This document shows positions 869-23,241 of a stretch of DNA of 28,656 nt, in pieces (position 1 is the stretch's first letter; the number at the start of each line of letters is the position of its first letter). A program made the translations under genes and the position numbers. The notes under the pieces were generated by a model. That model saw only the letters and a program-made list of their open reading frames with translations, was not told the origin of the DNA and did no database searches. Origin of the DNA: Sarea resinae. Lineage: Eukaryota. The stretch covers positions 186,001-214,656 of the forward strand of contig JAPEUD010000043.1 in NCBI GenBank assembly GCA_026026165.1, in the 5' to 3' direction.

Positions 869-1179
869 AAACCTTTAAAGTGTTTGGTATACCAATCTTA
901 CTCGGCTTTTGTATGTGCATGACTGGATTCGTGAGCCGTCATAGGCGTACATAGCTAGATTTTTGGGAGTAATTCGACAGTAGTGTCGAGGTAATTTGGG
1001 AAAAACCATCGGTCTTTATCGGATTGACAATGACGAGGAGTGTATATACTACTACGTATGCTTCCTGAGAGAGGGAGAGAGTATGTGTGTGATCTGTTAC
1101 CATCAATCTCGTCAAGATATTTCTCGACGAATATGGTTGTCACCATTAGAGAAAAATAAAATCAAAAGAAAATGGAATC

Positions 1180-1185
1180 AAAAAA
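1180..1185 (-). terminator. RNA polymerase III oligo(T) terminator of the SRP RNA gene
   Basis: TTTTTT on the minus strand immediately after the predicted 3' strand of the SRP RNA. Confidence 0.75.
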
Positions 1186-1450
1186 GTTGACAATCAGCCC
1201 AACTTTACCGTCCCATCCCGAACGAGTTCGTAATCCGGTACCGCCACTCGATGGTGAAGATGCCTCTGCAGAATTGCTTCCCTCAAGGGTCATCTCCATT
1301 GCTTAAGGCTTTACAAGCGATCGTGGGTTACCCACACGAGTTGAAAACCACCACGGAGTTCGAACCGGGCGACCTGCGTCCGTTTTTAGAGTGAATTGGG
1401 AAAGTCCCGTTGGGATACGACCATCTTCTCACTTTATGACCACTACAGCC
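1186..1450 (-). ncRNA. SRP RNA: Signal recognition particle (SRP/7SL-like) RNA, Pol III
   Basis: Minus strand starts GGCTGTAGTGGTC, resembling the fungal small Alu domain (GGCTGTAATGGC in yeast scR1). Helix-8-like TGAGG-GAA-GCAA-TTC-TGCAG (1285-1266) has a GNRA loop and lies within a longer stem (1299-1287 pairs with 1264-1251). Long-range helix 1420-1406 pairs with 1226-1211. Internal B-box GGTTCGAACTCC (1366-1355); T6 terminator at 1185-1180. Confidence 0.88.
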
Positions 1451-1925
1451 GAAGTAAAATGCGCCCTTAACCGACATATAAGGGTATCCCCCGACAGTCA
1501 CATGCTCACGGCACCACTCCCTAATCCATGTGATGACTACAAGCAATACCGTACTCATTTCCATGCACACCCATAACACGAGGAAAAAAGGAGTCACGCA
1601 ATGAATAATATCACCCATCTGTGATAATGAAAATGCAATTCAAGATTTGTATCTGCAACAGATCGACTCGACCAGATGCCCAACTATAGTACATATCGAA
1701 CGGATATCTAACACGAAACACGCCCAACGCCGAGATGCAACGCGCGAGATGCATCAGGTGCCCTACTTGCACCCACACGCATTGAGCATCCATCCCACAC
1801 ATGAGTATGCAACAGTCACCCCGCAAATCTGCAAGACACCCGATGTGTGCACCTTTTCCCCCGAAAATTCAAGAGAAAAGGGATAATTCGTTTCGAAAAA
1901 GTCATCATCATTGCTCATGTCCACA

Positions 1926-6465: not shown

Positions 6466-6854
6466 GCCTGTCAGACCTCCATCGACGCCCGCCCCGCTCA
6501 GCCGACCGAAGTCAAGCACAAGACAGGGTTGAGATCATCACCACTCTCTTGCTCCCAGTGAGACCGAAGTCTCTCCGGGAGCAAAGGCGAGAGTATAAAG
6601 GCTTCACTCTAGGGCATCGAGGATATACGATCATCAGCCAGGTTGGAGATTCTGTGGCTCTGGTAAGGAGCTCAGAAGAGGACGTTTACTATAGAATTGA
6701 TTCTATCTGTAAAGGTGAGAAAAAAGCGTTGGTTAGCACGAGTTCATTCAAAGTTTGAAGCGTTTCAGAGGTATTTGGATAGAGAGCGTCAAGCTGCTCA
6801 AAACCAGTGGGCCTCGAAAAGGTAGGGGGTGGGCACTCACGAAGTAAAGTCGAC
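6466..6854 (-). ncRNA. U3: U3 snoRNA with a spliceosomal intron (exon 1 6854-6841, intron 6840-6707, exon 2 6706-~6466)
   Basis: Spliced 5' end GTCGACTTTACTTC|ATAGAATCAATTCTATAG matches U3 GAC/box A'/box A (yeast GTCGACGTACTTCATAGGATCATTTCTATAG). GAGCCACAGAATC hinge; box C' TGATGA (6636-6631); box B AGAGTGA (6610-6604); box C TGATGA (6540-6535); box D CTGA (6474-6471) with terminal CCTG/CAGG stem. Intron has GTGAGT donor, GCTAAC branch (6737-6732) and TACAG acceptor. Confidence 0.93.
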
Positions 6855-6891
6855 TGAAGAAAAAAACAGAAGAGAGAGGGCCTCCAGCGAG

Positions 6892-6898
6892 TATTTAT
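6892..6898 (-). promoter_or_regulatory. TATA-like element of the U3 gene
   Basis: ATAAATA about 40 nt upstream of the predicted U3 5' end, followed by a pyrimidine-rich tract. Confidence 0.55.
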
Positions 6899-7570
6899 GT
6901 GGGAGAGGCAGAGCTCGCTTAGGCTGTGCCAAGCCCTTCCCGCAAATTTTCGAATCGGGTCGGAGAACACAAAACAGAACAAACTGACGCAAACACTGCA
7001 AATTCACGAGGTACTACGTGGGAAGTATGTCGCCAGCAGTGAATGGCGTTAGAGTACTTTGCGAGTAGTATTTGCGCACCAATGACAACCTCCTGTCCTA
7101 CCTGCTGTACCTTCCATCGTGGGGCTGGCCAGACTCGGGCAGTTACCAGCGAGGACTGGTTCCTATGAACTTGTAAGCCAGTTAATGAATATGTTATACC
7201 TACCTAATAGGCAGCGGATCGAGACAGAATTATGATAGCAAAGAATCTTATCAACATTCACCGAACTGTCAACTATCGTTCTGTCTTGCCTCTTGTCAGA
7301 CCTAAATCATTTCTCCTAACAGCACCGTATTAATATCGTCTTATATACCTCTCTCGCAACTAAATATTATGGAACTAATTGAAATTCAACTAAAATTCAG
7401 CTCTTACTCAAAGAACTATTCTTAAAATGATTGACTATAGATAGAAACTTCTCTATCCTGTAAAGCTATCCCTCACATCCACAAAGGGCGGGTGGCTTGG
7501 TTCATGTATACACACTGGGCCTACTACTAGATAGATCGAGAGATCCATTGGCTCGAGCCCAGGCTGGCTG

Positions 7571-8109
7571 GAGTTTTGGCGAAAAAATCGTCGAACGTCT
7601 CAGAGAAAAACCCGCCGCGAGCCCGTCGGGGCCCCGTCGGGTCGGGGGTCCCCCCGCCCGCACGTCTGCCACACTTACTGCGATACAACGATACGATTCG
7701 AGAAAGGGAATTTGGGACGGAAAATCGTCGAACGTCTCAGGGAAGCCCGCCGCGCGCTCGCCGTCAGAGTCCCCTCCCGTTTGGGGGGCCCGGTCTAGGG
7801 CTGCTTCAGGTTGCTACCAGTCCCTTTGGTCGTACCGTACGTCAACGAAGGAACTTTCGAGTAGAAAATCGTCGGACGTCTCAGAGGGAGCCCGCCGTAC
7901 GCGCCCTCCGCCCGCCTGCCAGGCACCAGATAGGAAGGTACCTACCCACAGGTACGCAGTACAAGCCCTATCGTTCCCATCGCCCGACAAGTGACCTGTC
8001 CTATGGTATCCGGTACCCAGTGCTCTATGTAGCGCATGAGTTTCGAGCGAAAAACCGTCGAACGTCTCAGCAAAAAACCCGTCCCGCGCGACCCGCCGGG
8101 TTATGCGGG
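7571..8109. repeat. Four imperfect ~45-bp direct repeats separated by unique spacers
   Basis: Core (T/C)CGTCG(A/G)ACGTCTCAG at 7588-7603, 7725-7740, 7869-7884 and 8055-8070. Each is preceded by GAR-TTT..AAAA and followed by ..CCCGCCG/CCCGTCC. Periods 137, 144 and 186 bp. Confidence 0.9.
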
Positions 8110-8645
8110 TTACAGGCGATCCGCCGGGGTCTGGCTGCGGCGTCCGACAGCTTTTAGCCAAAATCAATATACAGGCGGCTAAACAGCCATTTAAGGTAAG
8201 GTAGGATAAGAGAACTCCGATCTGAGGATTGACTAAGGAAGGATTAAAGAGAGTAACTGCTTTACTTGGCTTTTATCTAAAATATTTAAAGCAGGGTTAG
8301 AAAGGTGAGACAATAGTGGTTATACTACACATAACACAACAATATATATGAGTCCCTTAACACCTGACTTATTCTCTTATTTTCTTTATCATAGATAGAA
8401 TAGCACATTAATAGAGAAGACTTCAGAAAGAGAGGAAAAGAGAAAGCACAAAGTAGAGAGAGGCACTGATCAGACGATGAATAGAACAGGGGAAAATAGT
8501 GATGAAATAAGTAATACAATGCTATCTATAGCCTCCCTGTAGACTGTCCTGTCTCGGCTTTTATTCCTCCTGCTCCCCCATCTCTCCTTCTTTTCTCCTT
8601 CTTCAATTTTCTGTCTCCGTCGCTCTTCTACATCGCACGAACACA

Positions 8646-11600
8646 TCACATCAAACATCCATTCTTCCGGCTCGAATGCAACTCGCTCATGCCGACTCTA
8701 ACACGCTTCGTCCTCTCCGCAGCCCCGGCTCCGGTCCCTTCTCCACGCCCGCGCGACTCTCTGTTCTTGCGATCGCCACGAAGCGCCGCGTATCCTAGCG
8801 TCGGACTCGAGACATTCGGCTGGTTGGCCGCGGGTCTGGAATCCTTTCTCGGCGGATGCTGACTGTGACGGTGGGGGTAATCGGTATCATTGGATGGGTC
8901 AGAAGAGGAGTCAGGGGATGAAGAGGGGGGCGCTCGAGGCTGGGCTGAGATCGACGTCGAGGTGGCATTGTTGATATTGGAGGTAGGGAGAACGGCAAAG
9001 GCTTCGACGAGCCATTCGTACCACACTTTTCGCTCGTCCGTCATGCGCCAGATGGTAATGTCTAGGTCCGTGTTATCTGGGAAGGCGAGGGGGGTCTTTT
9101 GTTGTCATTATACCGATTAGCCTGCATACCCGATGTGACTAATAAAGTACCACTAGAAAGTACAGCGAAGGCGGAGCTGGAAGTGATGTAACGTGGGAGG
9201 CGGAATGGAATGTGACACAGGATAAGATGAGAAGAGATACATACCTTCAAGGGGAAGAAAATGGGAAACCAAGAAATCATATCCCGACTCTTACTCGCCA
9301 TGGTATTCGGGTTCGTGCTCAGCTCCACGTCGTCATAAAGCACTGTCTCGAAGTACCCGGCTAGCCCATGGCAGACGCCGCGGTCTGCACAGCGAAAGCG
9401 CAGACGTGCATAGCGGGTATTATGGCTGTTGTCCGGTGGGTCCTCGATATTGGGCGCGTGTGGGTTCGGATGCGAGAACTCCCAGGCGGTTTGGATGACA
9501 GGGGTAGCGGTTGTATTGGGTGGGTTTGACGACGTGCAGGTGGTTGTGTTGGCCATTGACATTGACTCTCGTGCTGCCGCCGAAGAAGGCATGGGCAGAG
9601 TGGATAGGAAATCAATCGCGTGAAGCATGACCACATAGGGGGTTTCTGGCGCGGCTGCATCAACGGGGATGCGGGCGGAGATGTCGGCGTGGAGTTTAGG
9701 GGCGGAGATTGGAGTAAGATGGGCAGTGTAGGAGGCGGGGATGCTGATTCCATGGGTAGGGTGGACGACGTGTTGAGCGCCGTCGAGACATTCGGGTGAT
9801 AGTTCATTGTCTGCGAAGGATCCTAGGAGTTCGGATATCAGGATGTCGACCGTCGTGTGAGTTGTGGTGGAAGTAGTGGCTCTCTCTGACGGGGGTGCTG
9901 CACCGCCCTCGAGTACGGAAGTGGTCATGGTGGGACCTTTCCATGACCGCATGTCTGATTTGACGACTGTAACTTGGCTGTTCCAATCTTGTAGATTGTG
10001 TCGCTGGAGGAGGACGTAGGCGTTTGGATTCTTCTCCACAGCCCACATGTCGATTTCCACCCCTGTTGAAGCGCTGGCTTTTAATGCACGAGTGACCAAA
10101 GGCCCCCTGCCCGCACCGACGACAGCAACGACAACTTTTCCGTCAGGACGCGAGGTAGCTTTGCCTTGCTGGGCCCAATCGCTTAGGGCTCGGGCGATGG
10201 CTCTCTCGTACCAATCATATTTGACGGGATCTTTTTCGAAGACCTCGTAAGTGATGCTCTCGAGGTTATCGGTCAGTGGTTGCAAAGGGGCCTGGAGATA
10301 ATCCTGGTACCCGGAACCGAAACGCTCGATTGTTGACCGAGGCGGCTGGTTACGCTGAAGATGCCGAATATAGCTCAGATGTGGGGTTGGATCTTTAGAC
10401 TTCTTTCCCGGGTGAGAGTAGCGCTGACTCTGTGACGCTGCAGCTTCAGCGGGCGTAGGTGATGGCGAACCTGCCCGGGCATCAGCAGCAGCGCTAGGGC
10501 TGAGAAAGCCGTCCGCCGAGGGAACGGGGTTGCCATTGAGATCTTCCACCCCGGGAATAGGGCCCACATCGCAGAGGAGGAGCCAAGGAGGATTTTTGAG
10601 CCGCATGTAGCGCGATATGAGTGCCTGGTGGCTTTTGCTGAGGACAGGATAGCCTTTGCTATTCTTCAGGAAGGTGCTGGCATCTATGGAGAGGAGGCGG
10701 AGGGGCTCGGAGTACCATCTGGATTGGACTGATATGGGTGGAAGATGGCGGGGAAGGGATAATGCTATTAGTTAAGGCACTGTCAGCAATAGGTCGATGT
10801 CGCCCCATGATGAGCAGGCAGACAAGGGAATGGATTATTCGGCGGATCAGATTGGCCTGTTGGAAAGGTATAGGGAAGCCAGGAACAAGAGAAAGCTCGG
10901 CGGAACGGAATGTGCCACTCAAGGTAAAGAACAGAATAGAGATATTCTTCGACAGTTCTATGTTCTTACCTACGGATAGCCTGGCATTGTATTTACACAC
11001 TGTTCGGATGACATTCCAAGCATCCCAAGTCCCAAATAGATCTGCCTTCCGTCTTGGCTCTTCATCTGCTTCCGTCATGAATTGCTCCCTTGCAAATGGT
11101 GCCAAGCTACCCATTTCCCCGTCTGCATCATGATCCGGATGATCAATCATTGGCAGAAGGATCTGAATCTGCAAATAAGGTCCGATGCTCAGGGCCTCCT
11201 GAATCGCTCGCGCATACTGAGCGATTCCATCCCCATCGTTTTCGCTTCCATGATGAAGTCTCGGTCCAGCAACGATCAGATTGCCGACACCACAGAAGGC
11301 TGCATAGGCAGTTTCCAAATTTAAGACCTGCTGGGATAGATTCGCGATGAGCGGGTCCGGTGACGCGAGATCGATCCATGAACTCGCAAACGCGAGGAGC
11401 TGCGAGATGGTCTCACAAGGAGTCAGAGGCGTATCTGTCGGTGTCAGTGGCGGTATCGTAGGAGCAGGCGGCTCGACAGAAGTGCCGCCAAGAGTGCTCT
11501 TCGACTCGTAAAGGCTCGGTTGAAGCTTGGACAGATGAGCAGAGAGTAGAGTGAGGACTCTGGAGTGGAAATGGGGGGAAGTGATTGGCGTCGTCAGCAT

Positions 11601-11791
11601 ATCATACTAGAAGGAAGTCAATGGTCTGCCCGACATCCAAGAAGGTCATGGCAAATTCCTACGTTGTATTCGTGAGCCTGCTTCAGGACTTCAGCCGTGA
11701 CGGGTATGGTCCGTTTGCTGGCATGCTGGCCGACGCAGAAGAGAGGCATATAATCGTCGGCGGGCGGAGATGTCTCCATCTCCATCTCCAT
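8646..11791 (-). CDS. PRMT5: Type II protein arginine N-methyltransferase PRMT5/Skb1/Hsl7; exons 11791-11663, 11606-10970, 10764-9245, 9095-8646
   Basis: YQDYLQAPLQPLTDNLESITYEVFEKDPVKY, VVGAGRGPLV, AVEKNPNA, ISELLGSFADNELSPECLDG, SWFPIFFPLK, KVWYEW. N-terminal TIM-barrel motifs (SSWIDL, WDAWNVIR). Three GT-AG introns join the ORF pieces in frame. Confidence 0.95.
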
Positions 11792-14927: not shown

Positions 14928-14993
14928 TGATGATGATGGGTGATAGGTGATGATGATGACGGTGGTGGAGATAGATAGATAGATGGAGGGTTA

Positions 14994-15093
14994 GATGGAT
15001 GGATGGATGGATGGATGGATGGATGGATGGATGGATGGATGGATGGATGGATGGATGGATGGATGGATGGATGGATGGATGGATGGATGGATG
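14994..15093 (+). repeat. Perfect tetranucleotide microsatellite (GATG)25, preceded by short (TGA)n and (AGAT)n tracts
   Basis: Directly visible, just downstream of the PRP43 stop codon. Confidence 0.98.
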
Positions 15094-15592
15094 ACTGGAT
15101 GCGCATGGGAAGGCGTGGGACAGCAAGGGAAAGAAAGGGACAGCAAGGGACACGAAAGGCAAGGACAGAAAGGCTGGGGAAAAAGGAGATCACCCATGTA
15201 TCCATCCATCCATCTACTAAATAAAACCTAAATCCCGCACCTAATCCCAATCCTTCCCTCTCGCTCTGTTTACCCAAAGAAAAAAAAATCAGAAAGTTTT
15301 CATGCTCTAGAATTTTTTCTAGCCTACCCTAAGACTCCGTATACCCACCGATATCTTTGCGTCGCGGCAGTGTCGTATTGTATCGTATTGTGTTAGAAGG
15401 TCATGCCATGTCCTGTATTAATCATGTCGACATCAACAACAGTCACACACATATCAAATCCAGCAGAGCCTTCATCCTCGTCTCTACTTTCGTCTATTCT
15501 CGTTTTCAATCTTTTGTGCATTTGTCCCAGGAGCTTTTCTACTTAATACGTCTACCACGCACTACGGTATAGGAATAACTATTTTTTTCCCC

Positions 15593-23209: not shown

Positions 23210-23241
<32 letters not shown>
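23210..23241 (+). repeat. Poly(G)32 homopolymer
   Basis: Directly visible, 45 bp after the APH stop. Confidence 0.95.

Follow-up and report, generated by a model that had tools for sequence, protein, structure and literature searches.

A five-copy repeat array between the U3 snoRNA and PRMT5 genes of Sarea resinae as a putative array of protein-binding sites

The stretch of DNA analysed here, 28,656 nucleotides of a Sarea resinae contig (GCA_026026165.1, JAPEUD010000043.1, positions 186,001 to 214,656; hereafter, the window), carries genes for SRP RNA, U3 snoRNA, and the protein PRMT5 (Table 1). Pfam searches of the long open frames in the window returned products of commonplace housekeeping genes, namely a short-chain dehydrogenase, a calcineurin-like phosphoesterase (Metallophos), UPF3, PRMT5, a DEAH helicase, and GDE1. 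For the GDE1 frame, the best match is a Sarea resinae protein (from a MAG) at 98% identity and the next best one reaches only 72%, indicating that the lineage is isolated and little studied. PRMT5 shares 59% identity with an Aspergillus fusion protein in a search among longer proteins. The last PRMT5 frame (8646-9104, minus strand) continues for about 100 codons beyond the PRMT5_C match as a low-complexity tail rich in Ser, Pro, and Arg, which could be a genuine extension of the C terminus or an intron that went unrecognised. A spliceosomal intron appears to interrupt the U3 gene, judging from minus-strand signals at 6707-6856: after a short exon 1 (GTCGAC..., approximately 6853-6840) come GTGAGT, a CTAAC branch site, and an ACAG that immediately precedes the start of the Rfam match (6719). 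About 40 nt upstream there is a TATA-like ATAAATA. Elsewhere, the window includes a (GATG)33 microsatellite (14970-15101) and a run of 32 G (23210-23241).

A repeat array occupies the DNA between U3 and PRMT5, where a first-pass annotation of the window had placed it and where the Rfam match to U3 and the PRMT5 domains confirm it to be. Both genes are on the minus strand, such that the array lies past the 3' end of PRMT5 and before the U3 promoter, with the probable start of U3 about 718 nt from copy 1 and the end of the PRMT5 open frame 480 nt from copy 5. The array is a real block of about 600 bases that includes five copies of a sequence of about 47 bases. Four direct copies with periods of 137, 144, and 186 had been described previously, and these were recovered by a repeat search (matches at 7567, 7704, 7848, and 8034); together they fit within 514 bp (7571-8084). 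A 15-nt core, CGTCGRACGTCTCAG, occurs four times with 0 mismatches against 0.12 occurrences expected, and four or more occurrences were reached in 0 of 100 shuffles. When an nhmmer profile of the four direct copies was scanned against the whole 28.6-kb window, the direct copies were matched with E values of 7e-19 to 2e-17 and a fifth copy, inverted and diverged, was matched on the minus strand at 8124-8166 (E 0.016, 10 bits); the next best match in the window had an E value of only 3. Copy 5 is thus an addition to the four copies of the first-pass annotation. Read on the minus strand, it presents a T-run, an A-run, GTCGGACG, CAG, and a CCCC-GGCGG stretch in the same order as the other blocks.

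Table 1. Features of the repeat array and of the neighbouring genes (positions are those of the window).
Feature	Position	Strand	Remarks
SRP RNA	1176-1451	-	Rfam, 156 bits
U3 snoRNA gene	6466..6853	-	Rfam Fungi_U3, 160 bits, 6466-6719; upstream exon/intron read from sequence
Copy 1	7571..7617	+	Left array end; nhmmer E 7e-19
Spacer 1	7618..7707		90 bp, unique, GC-rich; no significant alignment to other spacers
Copy 2	7708..7752	+	nhmmer E 8e-19; core 20/20 identical to copy 1
Spacer 2	7753..7851		99 bp, unique, GC-rich
Copy 3	7852..7897	+	nhmmer E 2e-17; core with G for A: CGTCGGACG
Spacer 3	7898..8037		140 bp, unique
Copy 4	8038..8084	+	nhmmer E 5e-18; core with C for T: AAAACCG
Spacer 4	8085..8121		37 bp, between convergent copies 4 and 5
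Copy 5	8122..8166	-	Right array end; inverted, diverged; nhmmer E 0.016
Copy 4/5 hairpin	8034..8170	-	Long hairpin if single-stranded; z -4.12 (minus), -2.21 (plus), 200 shuffles each
PRMT5 gene	8646..11606	-	Pfam PRMT5_TIM, PRMT5, PRMT5_C

Identity among the direct copies is 70-83% across the roughly 47 nt, and copy 5 is 63-69% identical to copies 1-4, with copy 1 the nearest. Conservation peaks in a 20-nt core that is identical at 18-20 of 20 positions among the four direct copies; copy 5 matches them at 14-15 of 20. Across all five copies, 21 of the 70 aligned columns are invariant, and these are grouped in sub-blocks (TT, AAA, GTCG.ACG, C.CAG, CC.G, and GC). Length differences of 1-2 nt occur inside the block, between CTCAG and CCCGCCG. 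Neither the nhmmer profile nor similarity searches detected copies beyond the array in the 28.6-kb window, and the array has no exact match longer than 13 nt elsewhere in the window (E at least 0.28). Beyond the window, a metagenome scan with the 20-mer returned 10 loci with a single match each, whose alignment was confined to the core, with unrelated flanks; these are read as chance-level matches, given a rough expectation of about 10 from the assumed database size. An extended pattern had 0 matches in prokaryote genome contigs and 0 in viral contigs, and a literature search with the core sequence found no mention of it.

The sequences that separate the copies are as unique as was first described, with all six pairwise local alignments of spacers yielding p values of at least 0.068 (500 shuffles). 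The first-pass annotation had named spacers that align with each other as a decayed tandem minisatellite as one observation that would speak against its proposals; because the spacers are unalignable and Tandem Repeats Finder reported no array here, a minisatellite origin was rejected. The same annotation described the block as a CpG-rich island between AT-rich flanks. The contrast in GC content is clear (0.61 in the island and 0.36-0.38 in the flanks), but the term CpG island overstates the case, since the observed/expected CpG ratio of 1.21 is only modestly high against 0.96 for the whole window and other 300-bp windows reach 1.47. Repeat-induced point mutation (RIP) was likewise rejected: the dinucleotide indices of the array (TpA/ApT of 1.21; (CpA+TpG)/(ApC+GpT) of 0.68) formally indicate it, yet an array at 61% GC is not RIP-like.

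Several short sequences in and around the array were noted. Spacer 4 contains two telomere-like GGGTTA hexamers (8098-8103 and 8107-8112, 9 nt apart) that could be a telobox or Myb-type protein site or a chance match; the corresponding TAACCC duplicate was considered as a telomerase template and discarded, as it is not a template of 1.5 repeats. Just outside copy 1, a CCAAT-box-like GCCAATGG (7546-7555, minus strand) is adjoined by a perfect 10-bp palindrome, GGCTCGAGCC (7550-7559), and a similar GGCT...AGCC stem is located outside copy 5 (8177-8188). Between the array and the PRMT5 stop (8410-8640), a 79%-purine tract of about 90 bp (8410-8500; 245 bp from copy 5) gives way immediately to a 75%-pyrimidine tract of about 130 bp. 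This purine/pyrimidine skew is equalled in only 20 of 2858 80-bp windows of the whole stretch, and the purine tract may be part of the PRMT5 3' region.

Alternative explanations of the array were weighed, among them a coding one, in which an unannotated gene would encode an arginine-rich repeat protein (plus strand) or an acidic protein with an ETFDDF-type repeat (minus strand) and the island would be one of its exons. On the plus strand, a run of 208 codons without a stop covers the island exactly (7531-8157), and its length exceeds that in 99.4% of controls with only the spacers shuffled (P 0.006 for the plus strand and 0.023 for either strand); moreover, copies 2-4 are mutually in frame (spacings 144 and 186). 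Yet the 208 codons do not include a single ATG, the spacing of 137 puts copy 1 in a different frame from copies 2-4, and the conserved block is interrupted by indels of 1-2 nt. In the minus-strand frame, both core substitutions would alter an amino acid. Codon-usage scores of -0.11 to -0.38 are about equal in all six frames, whereas six genes of the window score +0.02 to +0.19 in their true frames. Further, the frames of the island have no Pfam match, and no homologue was detected for the plus-strand frame among proteins of 114-364 aa in a set of 5.8 billion proteins or for the minus-strand frame among 1.84 billion representatives. Stop triplets are scarce on the plus strand at 7480-8200 (12 against 24.8 +/- 3.1 expected, with TAA at 3 against 10.1 and TAC over-represented at 17 against 8.7), while the minus strand carries 24 against 24.3 expected; a coding signal does not account for this asymmetry. 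A protein-coding exon therefore has scarcely any probability, and the initial judgement that the block includes no credible gene holds, with the long open frame as the sole point against it. The stop-triplet shortage, being specific to the plus strand, could also be taken to indicate an RNA, either a long non-coding transcript with repeated modules or a hairpin RNA, in which the blocks would serve as protein- or RNA-binding modules and copy 5 would have copy 4, or else copies 1-3, as its pairing partner. The island is GC-rich within AT-rich intergenic DNA near two RNA genes (U3 and SRP RNA), and copy 5 has a TATATT box immediately upstream on the minus strand. Of the folds in the array, only the copy 4/copy 5 hairpin surpasses shuffled sequence; it is stabilised to a greater extent as minus-strand than as plus-strand RNA (Table 1), and on the minus strand three of the five core differences become G-U wobbles (arms read by eye). 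Such a hairpin is nonetheless a trivial consequence of an inverted repeat. The fold of the whole array is no better than that of dinucleotide shuffles (minus strand, z -0.53; plus strand, z -0.24), and RNAalifold detects no conserved structure in the five blocks: its consensus has 3 pairs (-1.3 kcal/mol) on one strand and 13 (-5.2 kcal/mol) on the other, and covariation is nearly absent. The GC-rich inverted repeats reported in the first-pass annotation are present (e.g., the palindrome at 7622-7641), but units 1-3 fold like shuffled sequence on either strand (z -1.15 to +1.20), and the GC hairpins therefore reflect composition rather than a feature in their own right. No Rfam family is matched at threshold, and relaxing the cutoff to E <= 10 gives two chance-level matches (E 3.8 and 5), with 3.8 also the E value of the best snoRNA match. 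The modular, processed non-coding RNA that had been suggested thus loses support for want of an Rfam match, excess folding energy, conserved structure, and C/D boxes, and an RNA function is considered unlikely. Specific RNA candidates were also rejected. A tRNA or SINE origin was dismissed, as a search found no tRNA; a scripted scan of 6860-8660 for a C box, D box, and terminal stem found 0 candidate box C/D snoRNAs on the plus strand and 1 on the minus strand, outside the array; the sole near-match to a telomerase RNA template in the window is at 2008-2016, against 2.8 expected; the core of a hammerhead-like CTGAGA... sequence does not fit (by eye), and Rfam yields no ribozyme match. Derivation from the U3 locus was discarded based on block versus U3 alignments (p 0.10-0.52).

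The array may be a relic or a non-autonomous DNA transposon, with its terminal inverted repeats in copies 1 and 5 and with copies 2-4 as subterminal transposase-binding sites that were already aboard at insertion. The long terminal repeats of IR/DR-type Tc1 elements carry repeated binding sites of about 30 bp with unique spacers. In the array, inverted copies mark both boundaries, and copy 5 is nearest to copy 1, with which it has a TTTTGGC variant in common. An end-to-end inverted alignment (7549-7626 against 8189-8112) reaches a score of 38, exceeding all of 500 shuffles (19.4 +/- 3.8, maximum 37), and the composition of the island is unlike that of its AT-rich flanks, as would be that of an insertion. 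The transposon-end option of the first-pass annotation accordingly gains an inverted fifth copy and significant inverted ends. It gains neither a target-site duplication (two 5-mers in a grid of 35 x 40, or 1400, end positions, in which chance alone would give about 1.4) nor a transposase domain (0 of 16 ORFs scanned with Pfam) nor a second copy in the 28.6-kb window, and the fifth copy has diverged much further than the direct copies. The layout, with four copies against one, is asymmetric, and the putative terminal repeats are 69% alike while the internal cores are 90-100% alike, which is the reverse of the pattern of a young element; an old element, in turn, would not retain perfect cores. 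A transposon survives as an explanation only with strongly asymmetric ends or later constraint by the host, and it is regarded as doubtful. If correct, the array would represent an undescribed non-autonomous element in a barely studied class of fungi. Old local duplications could also have left a functionless remnant, with short-tract gene conversion, and not selection, maintaining the likeness of the repeat middles. Identity does peak at the centre of the block and fade towards both edges, as eroding conversion tracts would have it, and GC-biased conversion would be consistent with the high GC. For efficient gene conversion, 20-50 bp of homology is very little, the spacers retain no trace of common descent, and the sharply defined invariant sub-blocks are more easily explained by constraint. 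Such a remnant is accordingly held to be improbable.

What was observed directly comprises the repeats, the strict conservation of their primary sequence as opposed to the unalignable spacers, and the absence of RNA-structure and coding signals. Cores that are identical at 18-20 of 20 positions while spacers cannot be aligned fit a constraint on primary sequence rather than on a reading frame or an RNA fold. A near-perfect 20-nt centre together with separated, weaker sub-blocks, in both orientations, has the look of sites for a protein with a long footprint, and the arrangement of invariant columns in separated sub-blocks is as would be expected for several DNA-reading domains. Moreover, the inverted copy 5 points to a duplex DNA site, which tolerates inversion, rather than to a protein-binding module in single-stranded RNA, which does not. 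Among the options put forward in the first-pass annotation, an iterated protein-binding array is the best fit to the data, although by exclusion and analogy rather than by proof. On those grounds, we infer protein binding, a barrier function, and selective constraint by the host, and we tentatively propose, with a probability of roughly 0.3, that the array is a DNA-level cis element made up of sites for one DNA-binding protein with a long footprint, and a putative roadblock or insulator. Five sites, four facing one way and one opposed, would be bound by a single sequence-specific protein, conceivably one with several Myb/SANT, winged-helix, or zinc-finger domains. The sites would be set apart by unconstrained GC-rich DNA at a roughly nucleosome-sized spacing, and proteins bound there, with PRMT5 ending on one side and the U3 promoter on the other, would form a roadblock or insulator whose effect depends on orientation, such that read-through transcription, replication forks, or both would be halted ahead of U3.

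Several considerations count against an array of protein-binding sites. Repeats that arrive ready-made in a mobile element need no host function for their conservation, and the inverted copy is clearly weaker, with 14-15 of 20 core positions. Additionally, such sites leave unaccounted for the shortage of stop triplets on the plus strand with its 208-codon frame, as well as the GC-rich island itself. If the blocks are docking sites of a barrier or insulator, they would be a rare natural example outside of rDNA and fission yeast, in which a multi-site polar roadblock separates a protein-coding gene from a strongly transcribed gene for a small RNA, and the bound protein could then be captured with the 47-bp block as bait. 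As a single orphan locus, the array is at present of value as a lead.

The layout of the array can be compared to those of several known systems. Tc1/mariner elements of the IR/DR type carry direct repeats of about 30 bp that bind transposase, spaced by 150-200 bp with unique DNA between them, and inverted at the other end of the element. The ends of such elements are symmetric and near-identical and are flanked by TA duplications, whereas the array has four copies at one end and one at the other, ends that are 69% alike, and neither a duplication nor a transposase. A second comparison is with the B-box bound by TFIIIC, the consensus of which, GGTTCGANNCC, was used as a yardstick for the blocks. 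GTYCGAC, which contains the GTTCGA centre of the B-box, is present on the minus strand of every copy, but the blocks lack the terminal CC and the leading G, and two copies (3 and 5) read GTCCGA. The SRP RNA gene of the same window, in contrast, carries a canonical B-box, GGTTCGAAC. The footprint of the tauB module of TFIIIC is about 40 bp (PMC11724288), a precedent for a protein that covers a site of such length, tauB contacts bases beyond the B-box, and extra-TFIIIC (ETC) sites act as boundaries (PMC11724288, PMC12409998). A TFIIIC B-box or ETC site was rejected as an explanation of the blocks, which do not match the consensus, have only GTYCGAC in common with it, and come with neither an A-box nor a tRNA-like fold.

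A third comparison is with sites at which bound proteins arrest polymerases, as in the terminator repeats of rDNA and the Pol II roadblocks of yeast. The terminator boxes of rDNA are iterated. The yeast Reb1 motif is absent from the blocks. DNA-bound factors block Pol II as well as replication and DNA synthesis (PMC5052057), and the putative sites of the array resemble those of the Reb1/TTF-I type, which are oriented, bound by protein, able to stop polymerases and forks, and often iterated downstream of a transcription unit (PMC5052057). Known sites of this type measure 8-18 bp, in contrast to about 47 bp for the blocks, and the present locus is not rDNA.

The closest architectural counterpart is RTS1 of Schizosaccharomyces pombe. 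Region B of RTS1 spans about 450 bp and contains four repeated motifs that are bound by the Myb-domain protein Rtf1 (PMC10473836); RTS1 arrests forks that arrive from one direction only, region B is flanked by a purine-rich region A, and Rtf1 is, beyond its Myb domains, specific to S. pombe (PMC10473836). Four motifs over about 450 bp of otherwise unique non-coding DNA are mirrored by four direct copies within 514 bp in Sarea resinae, and the purine-rich region A has a conceivable counterpart in the 79%-purine tract, which is 245 bp away and perhaps part of the PRMT5 3' region. The array differs from RTS1 in its extra inverted copy and in being placed beside U3 and PRMT5 rather than at the mating-type locus. 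The resemblance would be one of architecture only, the two being likened by their layout and not by the sequence of their motifs. By this analogy, the sites could form a polar barrier of the RTS1 type in a filamentous ascomycete, trapping forks and read-through polymerases just upstream of the heavily used U3 gene, a proposal that is judged to be decidedly unlikely. If it were true, programmed polar barriers would extend beyond rDNA and the mating locus of fission yeast and would be a wider fungal device for protecting small-RNA genes.
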